Origin: a virus
Taxonomy: Duplodnaviria > Heunggongvirae > Uroviricota > Caudoviricetes
IMG/VR virus record: IMGVR_UViG_2617270938_000001
DNA: 23,613 bases
Reading direction: 5' to 3' (one strand)
Shown here: piece by piece, positions 4,527 through 16,573 of the stretch
How the letters are laid out: every line of letters starts with the position of its first letter
How positions within the stretch are numbered: position 1 is the first letter of the stretch
Position numbers and translations under genes: made by a program
The notes under the pieces: model-generated
Databases searched by the model: none
Told to the model about the DNA's origin: nothing
The model's input: the letters and a program-made list of their open reading frames with translations, nothing else

Positions 4527-5087
4527 TATCGCGTCCTCAACAATGAATTTTGTGATGCGGTGCCTGGTGCCTCCAGGTGACGTTAACCAGTTAACAATTA
4601 ACGCCGGATACAGAGAATCCACCCATAACACTGTTTTTGGTTTTAACTGTTCCGCGTGCGCTCAGCCGCATTCACCACATCACAAAATTCACTTTAAAAA
4701 GGGCGGCAGAGCAGTCACGGAGTAAAACTGATACCGCCAAACGTCACCAGAAAATTGATAACAGAGGGCGTTGCAGCGGGGTTGTCACTTAAGCGTATGG
4801 TCAACCTGACAACCCGGTGTCCTCAACGGGGAAGGAATACCCCCGCCATACTTACCGCCGCGCCATTTCGCGGAGTGCCACAACCGGAAGCGCACGGTCG
4901 ACGAAAATTTAACGACAGGCTATCTATGAACCAACAACTTCGCCGTGTGCTTTCGCGTTATGCCCTGACTTTTCAGGGAAATATCCTTTCAGTAAACTGT
5001 CAGTGCCGGATGCTCACCCGTGTCCGGCGCACGCACTCCACCTCACCCGTGGAGAACTCCTTAATCACCAACCCTCAGGAGGGTGAA

Positions 5088-5683: not shown

Positions 5684-5902
5684 TTAACGTGGGTATGTAA
5701 TCATTCTGGCAATGCTTAATGCCGCTGCTTTTTCCAGCCTGGTGATATCCTGCTCCAGAGCGGACAGATTTTCAGCCTGCTTAGCCCTGGCTTCATTGGC
5801 CCATTTCAGATCCTGCGCTGCATTAATTTTCTGGCGCATCCACTCATAAAGTTCATCATCGGTATAGTCTGGCGCGATGATGACGGGTTCTCGTTTCTGC
5901 AT
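5684..5902 (-). CDS. hypothetical protein (72 aa, predicted helical)
   Basis: GAGGAA SD 7 nt upstream of the ATG; charged heptad-like sequence (...AQDLKWANEARAKQAENLSALEQDITRLEKAAA). Confidence 0.5.
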   Translation of the reverse strand: MQKREPVIIAPDYTDDELYEWMRQKINAAQDLKWANEARAKQAENLSALEQDITRLEKAAALSIARMITYPR

Positions 5903-5931: not shown

Positions 5932-6060
5932 TCAGCCGTTAGATTTTGCCGAGCTGGAAAGCGCCTGTTTAAACTCACTGAAGCTGAGAGCTTCTTCGCC
6001 TTCGGCAAGGCCTTCGAAGTATTCTTCGTAAGCCTTTTTCATGATTGTGTCGAAATCCAT
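5932..6060 (-). CDS. small acidic protein (42 aa), not in the ORF track (below its size cutoff)
   Basis: Hand-translated: MDFDTIMKKAYEEYFEGLAEGEEALSFSEFKQALSSSAKSNG. GGTGA SD upstream; start lies 1 nt after the stop of the upstream gene (tight coupling). Confidence 0.45.
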   Translation of the reverse strand: MDFDTIMKKAYEEYFEGLAEGEEALSFSEFKQALSSSAKSNG

Positions 6061-6061
6061 A

Positions 6062-6217
6062 TCACTCACCTGAGTTTCTTTCCAGCCAGCGACGGGCACC
6101 ATTTTCGGTTTTAAACGTTTTGCTTTTGGTATACGTCATCGCGGTGAATGTGCCGTCCTGGTTGGGAAACACGCCGTACACCAGAGATTCGTTGTTGCCA
6201 AGATCGATAGTATCCAT
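6062..6217 (-). CDS. small protein (51 aa), first gene of the leftward early operon
   Basis: Internal ATG with GAGG SD 5-6 nt upstream (MDTIDLGNNESLVYGVFPNQDGTF...). The longer 78-aa form (start 6298) has a weaker SD. Position matches small genes next to the repressor in Rac-type prophages. Confidence 0.45.
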   Translation of the reverse strand: MDTIDLGNNESLVYGVFPNQDGTFTAMTYTKSKTFKTENGARRWLERNSGE

Positions 6218-6402
6218 GTTGACCTCATTTCCCCTTAACGCCGGGGTAGCGGAACAAAAACCTGCTGCATAGTTATTAAAGTTGAACCCCGCCGTCATGT
6301 TCTTACGCCTCGGGCTGGCTACTTAACCCCTGACCACTGCCTGGTAACTCGAAGTATTGCCCTGCATTCTGTGGGGCGGGGTGGGTTGGTATGAAAAGAA
6401 GG

Positions 6403-6440
6403 ATACCCATAGGTATTTAAAAAGTAAATACCCATGGGTA
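6403..6440. promoter_or_regulatory. OL-like operator pair: ATACCCATAGGTAT (6403-6416) and TACCCATGGGTA (6429-6440)
   Basis: Two palindromes about 26 bp apart, centre to centre, in the gap between the repressor gene 3' end and the first leftward gene; same motif family as the sites in the cI-cro intergenic region. Confidence 0.6.
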
Positions 6441-6482
6441 ACTTTTTACGGTGTCTTAACTGGTGACTAGTTGTTTGGTGAG

Positions 6483-6902
6483 CTATGATGCGTTTTGTGC
6501 TTTCTTTTTACGGATTTCTTCGTAGATCATATTGTAATACTGTTTTTTCTCTTCAAGAGTTTTTAATAAGTTATCCGCTTCACTTTCTGGCAGTTCGTCT
6601 AAGAGATCTAAAAAAATACGTTGTCGTGGCGTTAGAACCCTTGTTTCATAACTGGAGGCTGTGTTCGTTGATGATGAAACGATACCATCCATCCATCCCC
6701 GGGGTAACCCAAAGGACTCTTCGATAATCTCCACCATATCATCAGCGATCCGTTTTTTTCCCTTTTTCCCCTCTGGGTACAACATTCTTGATACATAAGA
6801 AGGCTCGCGCCCGATCTTTCTGGCCACGTTAACCGCTTTACCATCGCATTTCTCATCACGAATTTTGATGAGTTGCTGTCGTCTAAATTCATATTTGTCC
6901 AT
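6483..6902 (-). CDS. prophage repressor, cI-like HTH protein without a LexA-type peptidase domain (RacR-like)
   Basis: 139-aa ORF with an HTH-like segment (GKAVNVARKIGREPSYVSRML); divergent from a cro-like gene with operators between them. Too short for a C-terminal S24 autocleavage domain. Confidence 0.75.
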   Translation of the reverse strand: MDKYEFRRQQLIKIRDEKCDGKAVNVARKIGREPSYVSRMLYPEGKKGKKRIADDMVEIIEESFGLPRGWMDGIVSSSTNTASSYETRVLTPRQRIFLDLLDELPESEADNLLKTLEEKKQYYNMIYEEIRKKKAQNAS

Positions 6903-6938
6903 AGGTAAATAATAGATGCGATTACTGCAAGGTAAACA

Positions 6939-6978
6939 ACCTGTGGGTATTGACTTTTGTTTACCTATGGGTATTCTT
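6939..6978 (+). promoter_or_regulatory. OR/pR-like region: half-palindromes ACCTGTGGGTAT (6939-6950) and TACCTATGGGTAT (6963-6975) overlapping -35 TTGACT (6950-6955) and -10-like TATTCT (6972-6977)
   Basis: Operator motif shared with 6403-6440. TTGACT with a 16-bp spacer to TATTCT, then SD TAAGGAG (6991-6997) and the cro-like ATG at 7003. Confidence 0.55.
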
Positions 6979-7002
6979 TGCTGTGTTTACTAAGGAGTAG
7001 CT

Positions 7003-7284
7003 ATGGAAGAATTAAGAATATTTCTCAATTCTCTTTCGTCAGATGAACAGCGTATGTTTGCATGCGAGTGTGGTACCAGCATCGGTTATCTAAGAAAGGC
7101 ATTGAGTAAAGGTCAAGTGTTAGGGGCATCGTTATGTGTCCTTATTGAGCGAGCCAGTAATGGTGAAGTTACACGTCAGCAACTAAGGCCTTTTGATTGG
7201 ATGAATATTTGGCCCGAGCTGGAAGATACCAAAATGTTAACACAACCACTTTCTAGGAGCTTGATTCATGAAAATCAAGCATGA
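7003..7284 (+). CDS. Cro/YdaS-like HTH transcriptional regulator
   Basis: 93-aa ORF, first gene rightward of the immunity region, strong SD; HTH-like segment (SIGYLRKALSKGQVLGASL). Followed by a YdaT-like gene, as in Rac. Confidence 0.7.
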   Translation: MEELRIFLNSLSSDEQRMFACECGTSIGYLRKALSKGQVLGASLCVLIERASNGEVTRQQLRPFDWMNIWPELEDTKMLTQPLSRSLIHENQA

Positions 7285-7693
7285 ACACATCCGCATGGCG
7301 ATGAATGCCTGGGCGCATCCGGACGGTGAAAAAGTTCCGGCAGCTGAAATAACCAGGGCTTATTTTGAACTGGGTATGACGTTCCCAGAACTGTATGACG
7401 ACAGCCATCCGGAAGCCCTGGCTCGCAATACCCAGAAAATTTTCCGCTGGGTAGAGAAAGACACCCCTGATGCAGTTGAAAAAATTCAGGCGTTGTTACC
7501 AGCTATCGAAAAAGCAATGCCACCTCTGCTGGTGGCCCGAATGCGCAGCCATAGCTCAGCCTATTTTCGGGAACTAGTGGAGACGCGGGAACGACTGGTG
7601 AGAGACGCTGATGATTTTGTCGCAGTGGCGATCGCTGGTTTCAACCAGATGAATCGTGGTGGCCCTGCAGGAAATATTGTGGCTGTGCATTGA
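7268..7693 (+). CDS. YdaT-family protein (partner of the YdaS-like regulator)
   Basis: 141 aa beginning MKIKHEHI..., the N-terminus I recall for E. coli Rac YdaT; overlaps the cro-like gene 3' end. Confidence 0.65.
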   Translation: MKIKHEHIRMAMNAWAHPDGEKVPAAEITRAYFELGMTFPELYDDSHPEALARNTQKIFRWVEKDTPDAVEKIQALLPAIEKAMPPLLVARMRSHSSAYFRELVETRERLVRDADDFVAVAIAGFNQMNRGGPAGNIVAVH

Positions 7694-9403: not shown

Positions 9404-9616
9404 ATGTCAAATACACAGAAAATTATTAACACTGAAAAATATAACGAGTGGGTGAAAAAATTCTCTGAACAGATTTTTAAAATTACTGGCGACGAGAATG
9501 TGGCAAAAAATGAATTAGAACCGTGGACACCTGAAGGAAACGCACCAAATTATTGCTGGTGGGAAGTTGATCCGGTTGATGCTGCAAATGAAGCCATGAG
9601 TTACCACAACGATTAA
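9404..9616 (+). CDS. hypothetical protein (70 aa), AT-rich island
   Basis: GGAGG SD 7 nt upstream of the ATG; preceded by about 100 bp of AT-rich intergenic DNA. Confidence 0.55.
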   Translation: MSNTQKIINTEKYNEWVKKFSEQIFKITGDENVAKNELEPWTPEGNAPNYCWWEVDPVDAANEAMSYHND

Positions 9617-9648
9617 TGTCGGGAGGCCGCCCGAAAGGGCGGTAAGAA

Positions 9649-9867
9649 ATGACTACATTATTCAGAAAAGAATATCCGCAAAAAAGTAGAGCGACAGAAT
9701 TTTTGTTTCTCATTCTGTTTATCGTATTGATGATACCGATATCCCCTCTAATTTTTGTCTGGGCAATCGGGAAAATAATTGAGCCAGTTACTGAATTGTA
9801 TACCGACGTTGTATGGGCGTCGTTCAACACACTGCACAATAAAATTAATCCGTATAAGGAAAACTGA
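9649..9867 (+). CDS. small membrane protein (72 aa, one predicted TM helix)
   Basis: Hydrophobic stretch FLFLILFIVLMIPISPLIFVWAIG. The start is preceded by a CCGCCC-GAAA-GGGCGG hairpin. Confidence 0.5.
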   Translation: MTTLFRKEYPQKSRATEFLFLILFIVLMIPISPLIFVWAIGKIIEPVTELYTDVVWASFNTLHNKINPYKEN

Positions 9868-9868
9868 T

Positions 9869-10132
9869 ATGGCAACTTTGACAAAAAAAGAACGGGCATG
9901 GTTGAACGAATTACAGGAAGTTCTTGATCGCTGTCCATCACCGAAAAAAATTGGCTTTTACACCATTGGCGATAAAAGCATTTACCTGTATGACCTACGC
10001 CGCATGGATGAAATCATGGAGGCTCTTGATAATCGTTCGTCGATGGATTGGTGTGTTGCTGTTCATGATATGAATGCAGGGTTTGATGAAAAGATTTTGT
10101 TCCCCTCATCAGTTGAAAGCACTGCGGGTTAA
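9869..10132 (+). CDS. hypothetical protein (88 aa)
   Basis: ATG 9869 with AAGGA SD, 1 nt after the stop of the preceding gene (MATLTKKERAWLNELQEVLDRC...). The track ORF 9779..10132 is the same frame with upstream run-in. Confidence 0.5.
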   Translation: MATLTKKERAWLNELQEVLDRCPSPKKIGFYTIGDKSIYLYDLRRMDEIMEALDNRSSMDWCVAVHDMNAGFDEKILFPSSVESTAG

Positions 10133-10142
10133 GGAGTAACAC

Positions 10143-10310
10143 ATGACCACTATTACCAAAGAACGTATTGAATTGTTCATTAAAAACCCGCTTGAAAACG
10201 GGCTTACCCGTGGTGAACAAATGGAACTGGCACGGATTGCGCTGGCATCGCTGGAAGCAGAGCCGGTTGTGTTCTGGTTTGAAAAATATCAAGAAGGGGC
10301 TACGGCATGA
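10143..10310 (+). CDS. small protein (55 aa), short paralog of the next gene; not in the ORF track
   Basis: Hand-translated [55 protein letters not shown]; strong SD AAGGAG 6 nt upstream; its stop overlaps the next start (ATGA). Confidence 0.5.
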
Positions 10311-10651
10311 CGACTTTTACCAGAGAGCAGTTAATAGCTCACGCAGAGGAGACTATTGAAGCACAGAGACTGTGCATACCGGGCACAATCGACCATGACA
10401 TCATCCGCACATATAAGATGGATATTGCTGTTCTGGAAATCGCACTGGTATCGCTGGCAGCAGAGCCAGCCGGTAAATTGCATGAATACAAACCAGTGGG
10501 ATATCAGCGTCTGGTCGATGAGTTAACCATGCTGGTAAAGCAGTTAACCTGGCAACTGAGGAAAGCGAAGCCAGACTGCAAATTACCGGATAAGGCGATG
10601 AGTTATCTGGAGCGGAACGGACTGATAAGCGTGGAGGATATTTTACGATGA
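10307..10651 (+). CDS. hypothetical protein (114 aa), paralogous at the N-terminus and the ALxSLxAEP motif to the 55-aa gene
   Basis: [10 protein letters not shown]... with [10 protein letters not shown] versus [10 protein letters not shown] in the upstream gene; translationally coupled. Confidence 0.55.
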
Positions 10652-10731: not shown

Positions 10732-10942
10732 AAACGGTTTGCGGGAAAAGGAGAGTTAAGTAGAATTGCAGCGGGTGCTTGAGGCTATCTGTCTCAGGCA
10801 TGAACACCAAAAGGCAGATAGAGAAAAGCCCCAGTTAACATTACGCGTCCGGCAAGACGCTTAACATTAATCTGAGGCCATATCTATGCTCTACACACGT
10901 AGGTTAGCCTCTTACGTGCCGAAAGGCAAGGAGAAGCAGGCT

Positions 10943-11098
10943 ATGAAGCAGCAAAAGGCGATGCTAATCGCCCTGATCGTCATCTGTTTAACCGTCATTG
11001 TGACGGCACTGGTAACGAGGAAAGACCTCTGCGAGGTACGAATCCGAACCGGCCAGACGGAGGTCGCTGTCTTCACAGCTTACGAACCTGAGGAGTAA
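10943..11098 (+). CDS. hokD: Hok/Gef-family type I toxin (51 aa; matches my recollection of E. coli HokD/RelF)
   Basis: MKQQKAMLIALIVICLTVIVTALVTRKDLCEVRIRTGQTEVAVFTAYEPEE. AGGAGA SD 8 nt upstream. An in-frame upstream extension from ATG 10886 gives a 70-aa mok-like ORF. Confidence 0.9.
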   Translation: MKQQKAMLIALIVICLTVIVTALVTRKDLCEVRIRTGQTEVAVFTAYEPEE

Positions 11099-11165
11099 GA
11101 GACCAGGCGGGGGAGAATCCCTCGCCACCTCTGATGTGTCAGGCATCCTCAACGCACCCGCACTT

Positions 11166-11192
11166 AACCCGCTTCGGCGGGTTTTGTTTTTT
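11166..11192 (+). terminator. rho-independent terminator after hok
   Basis: AACCCGC-TTCG-GCGGGTT stem-loop followed by TTTTGTTTTTT. Confidence 0.7.
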
Positions 11193-11264
11193 CCTAGCAT
11201 TCTGGTTTACAATTCGCACACCAGCCTGAACAACTGGCACCTGCTGCGCCAGCAGAGACAACCG

Positions 11265-11543
11265 ATGGCGCACGATACCAAATTACACAATTCTGATGAT
11301 TCTGCCGTCTTTGCCAGCAGGCACGGGCGGCGTTCCCGCACTTTCAAATCTGACTGGTTCCAGCATCCCCCATGCACTGAAGAACAGGCCGAGTGGCTAA
11401 TTCAGTGCTACCGCAGACACGGATACGAGATTAAGAAAGCCCTCAGCCTCGATTATCGTCACTGGATAATCTCCGTCAGGCTTCCTTACTCCGAACGTCC
11501 ACCGCGTCCGTCCCGCACATTCCAGCAACGCATCTGGAGGTAA
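11265..11543 (+). CDS. hypothetical protein (92 aa), in the position of Rem in Qin
   Basis: ORF 11136..11543 overlaps the hok terminator, so a later start (ATG 11265, MAHDTKLHN...) is more plausible; weak SD. Ends 1 nt before the DUF968 gene start. Confidence 0.35.
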   Translation: MAHDTKLHNSDDSAVFASRHGRRSRTFKSDWFQHPPCTEEQAEWLIQCYRRHGYEIKKALSLDYRHWIISVRLPYSERPPRPSRTFQQRIWR

Positions 11544-15469: not shown

Positions 15470-15540
15470 GGCCCTTTAGCTCAGTGGTGAGAGCGAGCTA
15501 AAGGGCCGGGTCGCTGGTTCAAATCCAGCAAGGGCCACCA
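15470..15540 (+). tRNA. tRNA-Ile-like element with aberrant anticodon arm (probable tRNA pseudogene)
   Basis: Acceptor GGCCCTT/AAGGGCC, D-arm GCTC-AGTGGTGA-GAGC, T-arm GCTGG-TTCAAAT-CCAGC and 3' ACCA are intact. The anticodon-arm region is 12 nt (AGCTAAAGGGCC) instead of 17 and is perfectly complementary to the element's own 5' end. Confidence 0.5.
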
Positions 15541-15549
15541 TATCACATA

Positions 15550-15626
15550 CCACCATTAGCTCATCGGGATAGAGCGCCAGCCTTCGAAGCTGGTTGCGCG
15601 GGGTTCGAGTTCTCGATGGCGGTCCA
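15550..15626 (+). tRNA. tRNA-Arg (anticodon TCG)-like; candidate tRNA with imperfect stems
   Basis: D-arm GCTC-ATCGGGATA-GAGC; anticodon arm CCAGC-CTTCGAA-GCTGG; T-loop TTCGAGT; 3' CCA. One A-C mismatch in the acceptor stem and two G-T pairs in the T-stem. Confidence 0.45.
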
Positions 15627-15882: not shown

Positions 15883-16080
15883 ATTGTCTGGCTGCCGGAG
15901 AATTTGTTAAAAATAACATCGCATGGTGAATCCCCCTCAGCGGCGGGGCATCTGGCAAAGTGTATGATCCAGAGAACATGCAAATTCAGTAGACAGGCTG
16001 AATTTACCGGGAGGCCCCTGGCACCATGCGACAGACAGAAATTAGGCTATACTTCAGCCCCTCTCCGGAGGGGCTTTTCT
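15883..16080 (+). ncRNA. candidate noncoding RNA element A (about 198 nt), paralog of element B, ending in intrinsic terminator AGCCCCTC-TCCG-GAGGGGCT + TTTT
   Basis: Shares blocks with 16352-16545 (ATTGTCTGGC, TTTGTTAAAAA, CGCATGGTGAATCCCCCT, GAATTnACCGGGAGGCnCCnGGCACCATGC, identical terminator hairpin). The overlapping ORFs are on different strands in the two copies, arguing against a shared protein. Confidence 0.45.
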
Positions 16081-16268
16081 GTGCAGGATGTGTCACAGTT
16101 TCCTGAATTCTGAGTACTGTCCTGTTACTCAGGGTGCTATATTTTCTGACGTGATGAAAGTCTGCCGGAAGGCGGAACGTATCGGAAATGACCCAGTAGA
16201 GAAAACGTTGACTCAGATACCGATGCTGAGTTACCGGGAAACCGGCATCACATGACCGCTATCCTTCC

Positions 16269-16351: not shown

Positions 16352-16545
16352 ATTGTCTGGCCGGCGGGAAGTTTGTTAAAAAATTTCGCATGGTGAATCC
16401 CCCTGTGCGGAGGGGTAATCAGCGAGTAGGTATATGGGATAATCGCGGATTCAGGTGCTGGTACTGAATTCACCGGGAGGCACCCGGCACCATGCAATGG
16501 CACATAGCGCCACTCTCCAGCCCCTCTCCGGAGGGGCTGTTTATA
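16352..16545 (+). ncRNA. candidate noncoding RNA element B (about 194 nt), paralog of element A, same terminator hairpin (16519-16538)
   Basis: See element A. The conserved 5' block, the GGTGAATCCCCCT block, the GGGAGGC block and the terminator are retained while the middle has diverged. Confidence 0.45.
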
Positions 16546-16573
16546 TTGATTTTGTCAGATGTGAGTAAACTCC

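Follow-up and report, generated by a model that had tools for sequence, protein, structure and literature searches.

How an immunity region might be run with a repressor too short to hold an autocleavage domain is the question raised by a 23,613-nucleotide (nt) stretch of DNA (referred to here as the window) from the viral record IMGVR_UViG_2617270938_000001 (Caudoviricetes). In the window the gene for a 139-amino-acid (aa) repressor and a cro-like gene are divergent, and copies of a short palindrome lie in the gap between them and again downstream of the repressor gene. An earlier account made from the letters of the DNA and its open reading frames (ORFs), called here the sequence-only reading, had interpreted these palindromes as operators of a probably non-cleavable repressor and had likened the region to Rac-type immunity regions. 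On the evidence set out below we are fairly confident that the segment at about 6387–7255 is a lambdoid immunity module, most likely a lambda-style bistable switch whose repressor is not open to RecA-stimulated autocleavage; judged by comparison with related prophages, the same segment is the exchangeable immunity module. Coordinates of all features are collected in Table 1.

Operator palindromes in the window

The window carries five copies of a 14-bp palindrome, for which the consensus in the wider family is TTACC-N4-GGTAA. Four of these (OL1, OL2, O2 and O1) had been named in the sequence-only reading, and a script check found all of them at the positions assigned. The fifth, O3, had been overlooked, so that the 100-bp gap between repressor and cro contains not two sites but three, lying over promoter-like hexamers on both strands, and the operator region is tripartite rather than bipartite. 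O2, one of the two intergenic sites originally described, is present but weak and only half-conserved (three mismatches against the family consensus). The spacing is 24 bp between O1 and O2, 15 bp between O2 and O3 and 25 bp within the OL pair, with about 0.5 kb from OR to OL. Measured from the repressor ATG the OR sites are at −72, −48 and −33, while the two OL sites are 42 and 67 nt past the repressor stop codon.

In a search of the whole window with the 14-mer ATACCCATGGGTAT and up to three mismatches, matches were obtained only at three of the four sites noted earlier (0.77 expected). The shorter TACC-N4-GGTA with up to one mismatch gave 12 matches against 4.84 expected, and five of the 12 fell inside 570 bp of the immunity region (6404–6973), where 0.12 would be expected (Poisson P 1.6e-7). 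The clustering of the palindromes is not explained by chance.

Conservation of the operators in 43 loci

The argument for operator function comes from a comparison of 43 loci, made up of 41 that were fetched by alignment of the repressor head (one genome per species) together with phage mEp043 and the window. They span Enterobacterales, Aeromonas, Xanthomonas, Stenotrophomonas, Neisseria and Burkholderiales, and all encode an N-terminal domain of the window type. Sites were scored as TTACC-N4-GGTAA with at most two mismatches. Between −90 and −15 from the repressor ATG we found 101 sites, or 0.031 per bp compared with 0.00074 per bp elsewhere in the loci (41-fold), and these fall into three classes: O1 at −72 to −76 (38/43 loci, logo TTACCC-nT-AGGTAA), O2 at −47 to −51 (26/43 loci, logo CAATACC-nnn-AGG-nn-ATT, with one good half-site) and O3 at −33 to −36 (36/43 loci, logo ATTTACC-nnnn-GGTAA). 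The clustering at −73, −48 and −33 holds alike for loci whose repressors end in a Peptidase_S24 domain (S24 below) and for those with short C-termini. The downstream copies, which had been called OL-like, also have counterparts, as about 30 of the loci carry a pair of sites 24–26 bp apart downstream of the repressor operon with a conserved TTGAC −35 hexamer between them; the distance of this pair from the repressor stop varies among loci and the window pair fits the pattern. Because the palindromes are dense and occupy fixed positions throughout the 43 loci, operator function, as proposed in the sequence-only reading, is strongly supported at the level of comparison.

Two variations on this pattern were noted. 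The −35 between the OL-type sites is degenerate (TTAT or TTAC) in three Klebsiella loci (L004, L008, L010) and in a few others, e.g. L013 and L034. In the window an extra near-palindrome (6895–6908, TTACCTATGGACAA on the minus strand) spans the ATG of the repressor gene together with the point where transcription is predicted to begin; none of the 42 related loci has it and half of it comes from conserved MDKY codons, and it was therefore rejected as a family operator. It could be an autoregulatory site specific to the window or a coincidence of the MDKY codons.

The repressor joins an S24-family head to a DicA-type tail

No Pfam domain was detected in the 139-aa repressor at E ≤ 0.1, hence no Peptidase_S24. 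An AlphaFold2 model (mean pLDDT 84) has a helical head, a disordered linker (residues 77–87) and two C-terminal helices (92–103 and 106–138). Within the head the model places a helix at 3–18, a helix–turn–helix (HTH) formed by 23–30 and 34–40, a basic loop at 41–53 and a helix at 54–63, and residues 34–40 (SYVSRML) are the predicted recognition helix. By Foldseek the head resembles XRE and C-protein folds, the top match, a weak one (E 1.6e-3), being Rep of the SPC32H Rep–Ant complex. When the PDB was searched by sequence, with either the whole protein or a head profile as query, the only matches were to Z-alpha winged-helix proteins and were dismissed as insignificant (E 0.08–0.7).

The two ends of the protein have different relatives. 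Residues 1–75 are 64–82% identical to the N-termini of many proteins of 221–242 aa with a Peptidase_S24 domain (PF00717) from Salmonella, Edwardsiella, Klebsiella, Pantoea and others, whereas the short C-terminus was shared in the protein search with a smaller set of proteins of 135–140 aa. In the alignment three features (the V(S/Q)AG cleavage motif, GDSM and a conserved Lys) persist in the S24 relatives, and all of them lie past the end of the window repressor. Its tail is instead homologous to the C-terminal part of DicA (NCBIfam NF007257 positions 81–131, E 2.8e-5; BLASTP 33% identity over 46 residues, E 1e-7). With just the tail as query, word-indexed searching of proteins gave fragments only, and a full HMMER scan was needed. 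This exhaustive scan gave 40 representatives in which the tail is always the extreme C-terminus, in proteins of 117–216 aa besides fragments of 51–90 aa. When 34 tail sequences were aligned (31 HMMER hits plus the window repressor, DicA and the CI protein of phage Tritos), 27 had an HTH_3 head and eight of the 34 matched Phage_CI_repr. The occurrence of the tail at the C-terminus of many unrelated HTH heads shows it to be a portable module. On these alignments the repressor is a natural chimera of an S24-family head, of the type found in mEp043, and a DicA-type tail without the peptidase, and the two-helix tail of about 50 residues presumably provides dimerization. The view that a repressor of 139 aa has no room for an S24 domain was thus upheld by the domain search, by the modelled two-helix C-terminus and by the homology to DicA.

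Promoters and the proposed switch

A consensus promoter scan of 6000–7400 called exactly two promoter-like sites, PR on the plus strand and PRM on the minus strand. PR is the TTGACT/TATTCT promoter that had been assigned to the cro-like gene, recovered here with its spacing and with O1 overlapping its −10. No Shine–Dalgarno (SD) sequence lies between the PRM −10 and the repressor ATG, and as the −10 ends so close to the start codon (Table 1) the repressor mRNA is predicted to be leaderless. Among the 43 loci a TANNNT hexamer is found at −12/−13 in 22, including nearly all of the Enterobacterales, and an SD-like 4-mer is absent from 37. The putative leftward promoter PL mirrors PR, with GGGTAT-TTACT-17 nt-TATCCT on the minus strand compared with GGGTAT-TGACT-16 nt-TATTCT.

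From these features we infer the following scheme of binding, promoter use, translation, activation and induction. Repressor dimers would bind the 14-bp palindromes through the XRE-like HTH head. With O1 (at the PR −10) and O2 (flanking the PR −35) occupied, PR would be off and cro, ydaT and the replication genes silenced. O2 has its centre 41.5 bp ahead of the point at which PRM transcripts are predicted to begin; −41.5 is the classic position for an activator that contacts sigma, as has been established with lambda CI bound to OR2, and repressor at O2 may likewise stimulate the weak PRM, from which a leaderless repressor mRNA would be made. At high repressor concentration O3, over the PRM −35, would shut off repressor synthesis, and the OL pair covering PL would keep a leftward operon of the dicBF type off. 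Derepression, if there is any, would come about through an antirepressor acting in trans (as GfoA for Gifsy and Rem for Qin) or through stochastic switching. In lambdoid phages both repressor and Cro bind the operators, and Cro is expected to compete here for the repressor's sites.

Specificity follows the head and Cro

The nearest immunity regions as judged by the head are those of mEp043 (PV340537 / NC_019706), a plaque-forming lambdoid phage, and of S24 relatives in Salmonella, Klebsiella, Edwardsiella and Pantoea. The mEp043 head is 76% and its Cro 73% identical to those of the window, and it has OR sites at −73, −48 and −33, paired OL sites (directly ahead of gene N) and promoters placed as in the window. 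Its CI, however, is a protein of 228 aa with an S24 autocleavage domain where the window repressor has the DicA-type tail, and it has cII and N genes of the lambda type whereas the window has YdaT instead of a lambda-like CII. Phage Tritos shows the converse. It is a near-sibling of the window prophage (97% identity leftward of 6386, 96% rightward of 7256) and its CI is also of 139 aa with a tail 72% identical to that of the window, but the head is an ordinary XRE head, the Cro is unrelated and the palindromes are of GTACT/AGTAC type. In homologues from Advenella the recognition helix SYVSRMLY is replaced by ASISHMLY or ATISHLLL and the upstream palindromes become CATACCGC...GCGGTATG. As the palindromes change when the head is swapped (Tritos) or when the recognition helix is altered (Advenella), specificity appears to track the head and Cro and not the tail.

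This leads us to propose, tentatively and with less than even confidence, that the head, the TTACC-N4-GGTAA operators and Cro form one conserved specificity unit, found with fixed geometry from Enterobacterales to Neisseria and Xanthomonas, that has been recombined with alternative C-terminal modules for the input of induction (S24 or the portable DicA-type tail). Cross-immunity between the cryptic prophage and plaque-forming mEp043 is predicted.

Neighbouring genes and prophage context

The window is a degraded lambdoid prophage. Family scans, together with how close relatives in E. coli are annotated, give it an integrase, an exonuclease, a left arm of dicBF type, genes for replication and lysis, a Q-like gene and remnants of the tail genes. 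The cro-like protein can be assigned to YdaS only weakly (25.8 bits with YdaS_toxin, for which the gathering cut-off is 30) and is followed by a CII-like gene of the YdaT family. A perfect inverted repeat at the start of ydaT matches, in sequence type and position, the footprinted YdaT operator OM of CP-933P (PMC9986795), which by analogy suggests an establishment circuit of the CII/PRE kind. The repeat is located at the mosaic junction with Tritos (about 7256). To the left, DicF, a ydfA-like gene and small ORFs indicate that the operon under the putative PL is a cell-division-inhibitor operon of the dicBF type, as in Qin and Tritos, and by analogy PL would be the equivalent of Qin dicBp.

Table 1. 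Features of the immunity region and neighbouring genes (window coordinates).
Feature	Position	Strand	Sequence	Remarks
Repressor gene	6483–6902	−		139 aa; stop codon 6483–6485; phrog_5736 transcriptional regulator, 4.4e-70
Repressor head	6678–6902	−		residues 1–75; common to S24 repressors
Repressor linker	6642–6677	−		residues 76–87; disordered in model
Repressor tail	6486–6641	−		residues 88–139; DicA-type, helical
OL1 palindrome	6403–6416		ATACCCATAGGTAT	motif searches; downstream pair conserved in related loci
OL2 palindrome	6428–6441		ATACCCATGGGTAA	centre 25 bp from that of OL1
O3	6922–6935		TTACTGCAAGGTAA on +; TTACCTTGCAGTAA on −	covers PRM −35 and spacer
O2	6937–6950		CAACCTGTGGGTAT; ATACCCACAGGTTG on −	abuts PR −35; single half-site conserved
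O1	6961–6974		TTACCTATGGGTAT	between PR −35 and −10, overlaps −10
PR −35	6950–6955	+	TTGACT	promoter scan; TTGAC adjoining O2 conserved family-wide ('gtcaATACC')
PR −10	6972–6977	+	TATTCT	16-nt spacer from −35; promoter scan
PRM −35	6931–6936	−	TTTACC	embedded in left half of O3; ATTTACC conserved in O3 logo
PRM −10	6909–6914	−	TATTAT	16-nt spacer; ends 7 nt before A of repressor ATG (6902)
Putative PL −35	6423–6428	−	TTTACT	between OL2 and OL1; family consensus GGTAT then TGAC, i.e. TTGAC
Putative PL −10	6400–6405	−	TATCCT	overlaps outer 3 bases of OL1
cro-like gene	7003–7284	+		93 aa, YdaS-like; SD-like AGGAGT 6993–6998; phrog_35
YdaT-family, CII-like gene	7268–7693	+		141 aa; PF06254 (YdaT_toxin) 39.6 bits, cut-off 21; phrog_163 CII-like activator
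Inverted repeat TTGATT-N6-AATCAA	7261–7278		TTGATTCATGAAAATCAA	0 mismatches; over ydaT start codon and cro 3' end
DUF1391/ydfA-like gene	6062–6298			first gene past OL
Small ORFs of leftward operon	5932–6102, 5684–5902
DicF small RNA	4701–4752	−		Rfam RF00039, 76.7 bits

The immunity module (at least 80% of a 1-kb query) was present in 822 of 5,426 complete E. coli genomes, and in RefSeq the repressor still bears the label hypothetical protein. In one E. coli strain an identical module lies inside a prophage at the Rac site (ttcA-intR...kilR-sieB-ydaF; NZ_CP021726.1 12184–13394), and the most window-like prophage at the ompW site (NZ_CP101240.1 7645–8978) has racR immunity instead; evidently, immunity modules have been exchanged between both lineages. 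Several genomes have an IS1 insertion within the module (hits H4–H6). Some E. coli database entries of 135–136 aa (P0012, P0018) start in an overlapping alternative frame (MNLDD..., window 6632–6892, minus strand) before entering the repressor frame, and read as frameshifted copies of the repressor gene.

Further along, a hok/sok-type locus occupies 10773–11098, with a sok antitoxin RNA at 10773–10948 (Rfam, 117 bits) and a hokD-like ORF that ends at 11098. Past this locus a 92-aa ORF (11265–11540) is 90% identical to TRITO_42 of Tritos and stands at the position of rem in Qin, but is unrelated to Rem. Two tRNA genes (15470–15537 and 15550–15623) and two tandem copies of the STnc100 small RNA (15891–16084 and 16360–16548) follow the Q-like and methyltransferase genes.

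Induction and alternative interpretations

As the window repressor stops short of the AG, GDSM and K motifs kept by its head relatives, RecA-stimulated autocleavage is excluded as far as a sequence can exclude it and is very unlikely as the route of induction, in agreement with the sequence-only reading. The best-supported analogy is with antirepressors, as the Gifsy repressors are controlled by the LexA-regulated antirepressors GfoA, GfhA and FsoA (PMC3121763) and DicA by Rem (PMC10448788). Spontaneous switching would be the other route, since switches controlled by DicA and by PaaR2 flip spontaneously in a bistable manner (PMC10448788, PMC8630535); Tritos plaques arise by spontaneous release, and the LF82 prophages reported as induced by ciprofloxacin do not include it (PMC9928086).

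Several points weigh against a functioning lambda-style switch and should be noted here. In the window no homologue of Rem was found (by comparison with the ORF 11136–11543 and tblastn of the whole window), no PHROG antirepressor annotation was found among the nin-region ORFs (9404–10651, 11136–11543) and two left-arm ORFs, and there is no perfect LexA box (CTGT-N8-ACAG), the matches with one mismatch lying outside promoter-like positions. The induction step is therefore without a physical candidate in the window, and a degraded prophage may simply be uninducible, although another prophage could supply an antirepressor in trans. The O2–O3 spacing of 15 bp compares with 23 bp in lambda, so that the logic of cooperativity may differ; PL matches the consensus at only eight of 12 positions (TTTACT/TATCCT) and was not called by the promoter scan. 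Finally, the comparison of loci cannot separate repressor from Cro as the protein that binds, as both travel with the operators.

A different reading takes the module for a permanently locked remnant, with true operators and a short repressor kept as a domesticated silencer whose sole task is to hold the toxic dicBF and replication genes off. The degradation of the prophage (a relative has truncated terminase and tail genes), the presence of the identical module in the 822 genomes, including the defective Rac-site element beside kilR, and the failure to find an induction gene in the window would all be consistent with this. We nevertheless regard it as unlikely, because cro and ydaT are intact and the perfect YdaT operator has been kept, suggesting selection on the whole switch, because the tail also occurs in plaque-forming phages such as Tritos, and because the DicA- and PaaR2-controlled switches, as mentioned above, do flip.

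For the OL pair it has to be considered whether the palindromes (6403–6441) serve mainly as an intrinsic terminator of the repressor transcript and not as a leftward operator. A terminator scan flags 6440..6404 on the minus strand (16 pairs, tail TCCTTCTTTT), the minus-strand RNA of 6399–6445, which includes a U-rich tract after the hairpin, folds with −24.1 kcal/mol (z-score −4.3 relative to shuffles), the hairpin begins 42 nt past the repressor stop codon, and lambda has a terminator, t-imm, between the cI operon and PL. However, two copies of any one palindrome automatically form such a hairpin, only five of the 16 pairs in this stem are G–C, and, apart from the window, only the Klebsiella loci L004, L008 and L010 have the T-rich tract after the pair. 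What is kept in the about 30 related loci is the 25-bp-spaced pair with the intervening TTGAC −35, at a variable distance from the repressor; in many loci it lies 400–1800 bp past the repressor stop and beyond other genes, and in mEp043 it lies ahead of N. A role mainly in termination is thus improbable, but a dual role of the pair as operator and terminator is possible.

That the repressor responds directly to SOS or stress without an antirepressor, by way of a host protease acting on the disordered linker or tail or an ImmA-type protease in trans, is very improbable. In its favour are the predicted disorder of residues 77–87, an ImmA/IrrE-like gene in the nin region of the sibling phage Tritos and the failure to find an antirepressor in the window. 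Against it, the window itself has no ImmA gene, with no more than about 450 bp between hokD and the DUF968 gene; for the closest analogues experiments support only antirepressors (PMC3121763, PMC10448788) and switching of a stochastic kind (PMC8630535, PMC10448788); and Tritos is not reported as ciprofloxacin-induced (PMC9928086).

Comparison with known systems

The lambda-style switch that we favour shares with lambda itself the divergent repressor and cro genes, a tripartite OR (at the PR −10, between the −35 hexamers at −41.5 from PRM, and at PRM), a leaderless repressor mRNA (predicted for the window), second operators at PL and the O1–O2 distance, which equals that of OR1–OR2. It differs in the lack of S24, in the 15-bp O2–O3 spacing, in having two OL sites and not three, in the distance of only about 0.5 kb from OL to OR and in the sequence of the half-sites.

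Further related systems are those of the Gifsy/DicA type (GfoR, GtgR, DicA; PMC3121763, PMC10448788), whose repressors like that of the window are about 135–139 aa long, lack S24 and the Ala-Gly/Ser-Lys motifs and occupy the cI position. DicA also lies upstream of an operon of the ydfA-ydfC-DicF-dicB type, as does the window repressor. The head of DicA, however, is HTH_3 whereas that of the window is different and is missed by Pfam; homology to DicA is confined to the tail, and the operators differ. These systems have an antirepressor (Rem or GfoA-like), while in the window no cognate one and no LexA box were found.

The PaaR2/YdaS/YdaT region of CP-933P (PMC8630535, PMC9986795) has a short non-cleavable CI analogue and a leaderless mRNA, and the layout of the window appears alike. 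Its intergenic region is 97 bp long compared with about 100 bp here, PR overlaps PRM in each and several operators are present, and in both OL repeats elements of PR, Cro is YdaS-like, YdaT is the CII analogue and TTGATT-N6-AATCAA stands at the end of the cro gene. The operators of CP-933P are GTTTAGTAA-type repeats and the consensus of the window is different, for which reason PaaR2 specificity was rejected for the window. Behind the repressor CP-933P has the paaA2-parE2 toxin–antitoxin genes, which the window lacks, the next gene past OL being the DUF1391/ydfA-like one.

The designation of the region as Rac-type can be kept in part. The gene order resembles RacR/YdaS/YdaT of the Rac prophage, and the YdaS-like and YdaT-family genes to the right fit it as the cro- and cII-like genes; the repressor is unlike RacR and has a tail of the Qin/DicA kind. 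Homology to RacR was rejected, as BLASTP gave no meaningful alignment (E 1.7).

Significance

The window repressor belongs to the known Gifsy/DicA/PaaR2 class of short repressors. Short non-cleavable lambdoid repressors, OR/OL layouts of this kind, leaderless repressor mRNAs and YdaS/YdaT partners have already been described. In the literature searched for the operator strings and for mEp043, no description of TTACC-N4-GGTAA operators was found. The operator consensus with its three-site geometry, its conservation in gamma- and beta-proteobacteria and the unit of head, operators and Cro carrying either an S24 domain or a DicA-type tail thus appear to be new to the searchable literature. Current understanding is not overturned; rather, a well-resolved example is added to the lambdoid repressors that depend on an antirepressor or cannot be induced. 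The module most likely silences a cell-division-inhibitor operon of the dicBF type and the replication genes of the prophage. The CI of mEp043, with S24, and the window repressor, with the DicA-type tail, on the same operators form a natural pair for asking how the C-terminal module sets induction. If the tail is the docking and oligomerization surface that settles which antirepressor, or none, can switch the prophage, a swap of tail would rewire the stress sensing of a prophage and leave its immunity unchanged, and the window prophage would be homoimmune with mEp043, yet not SOS-inducible.

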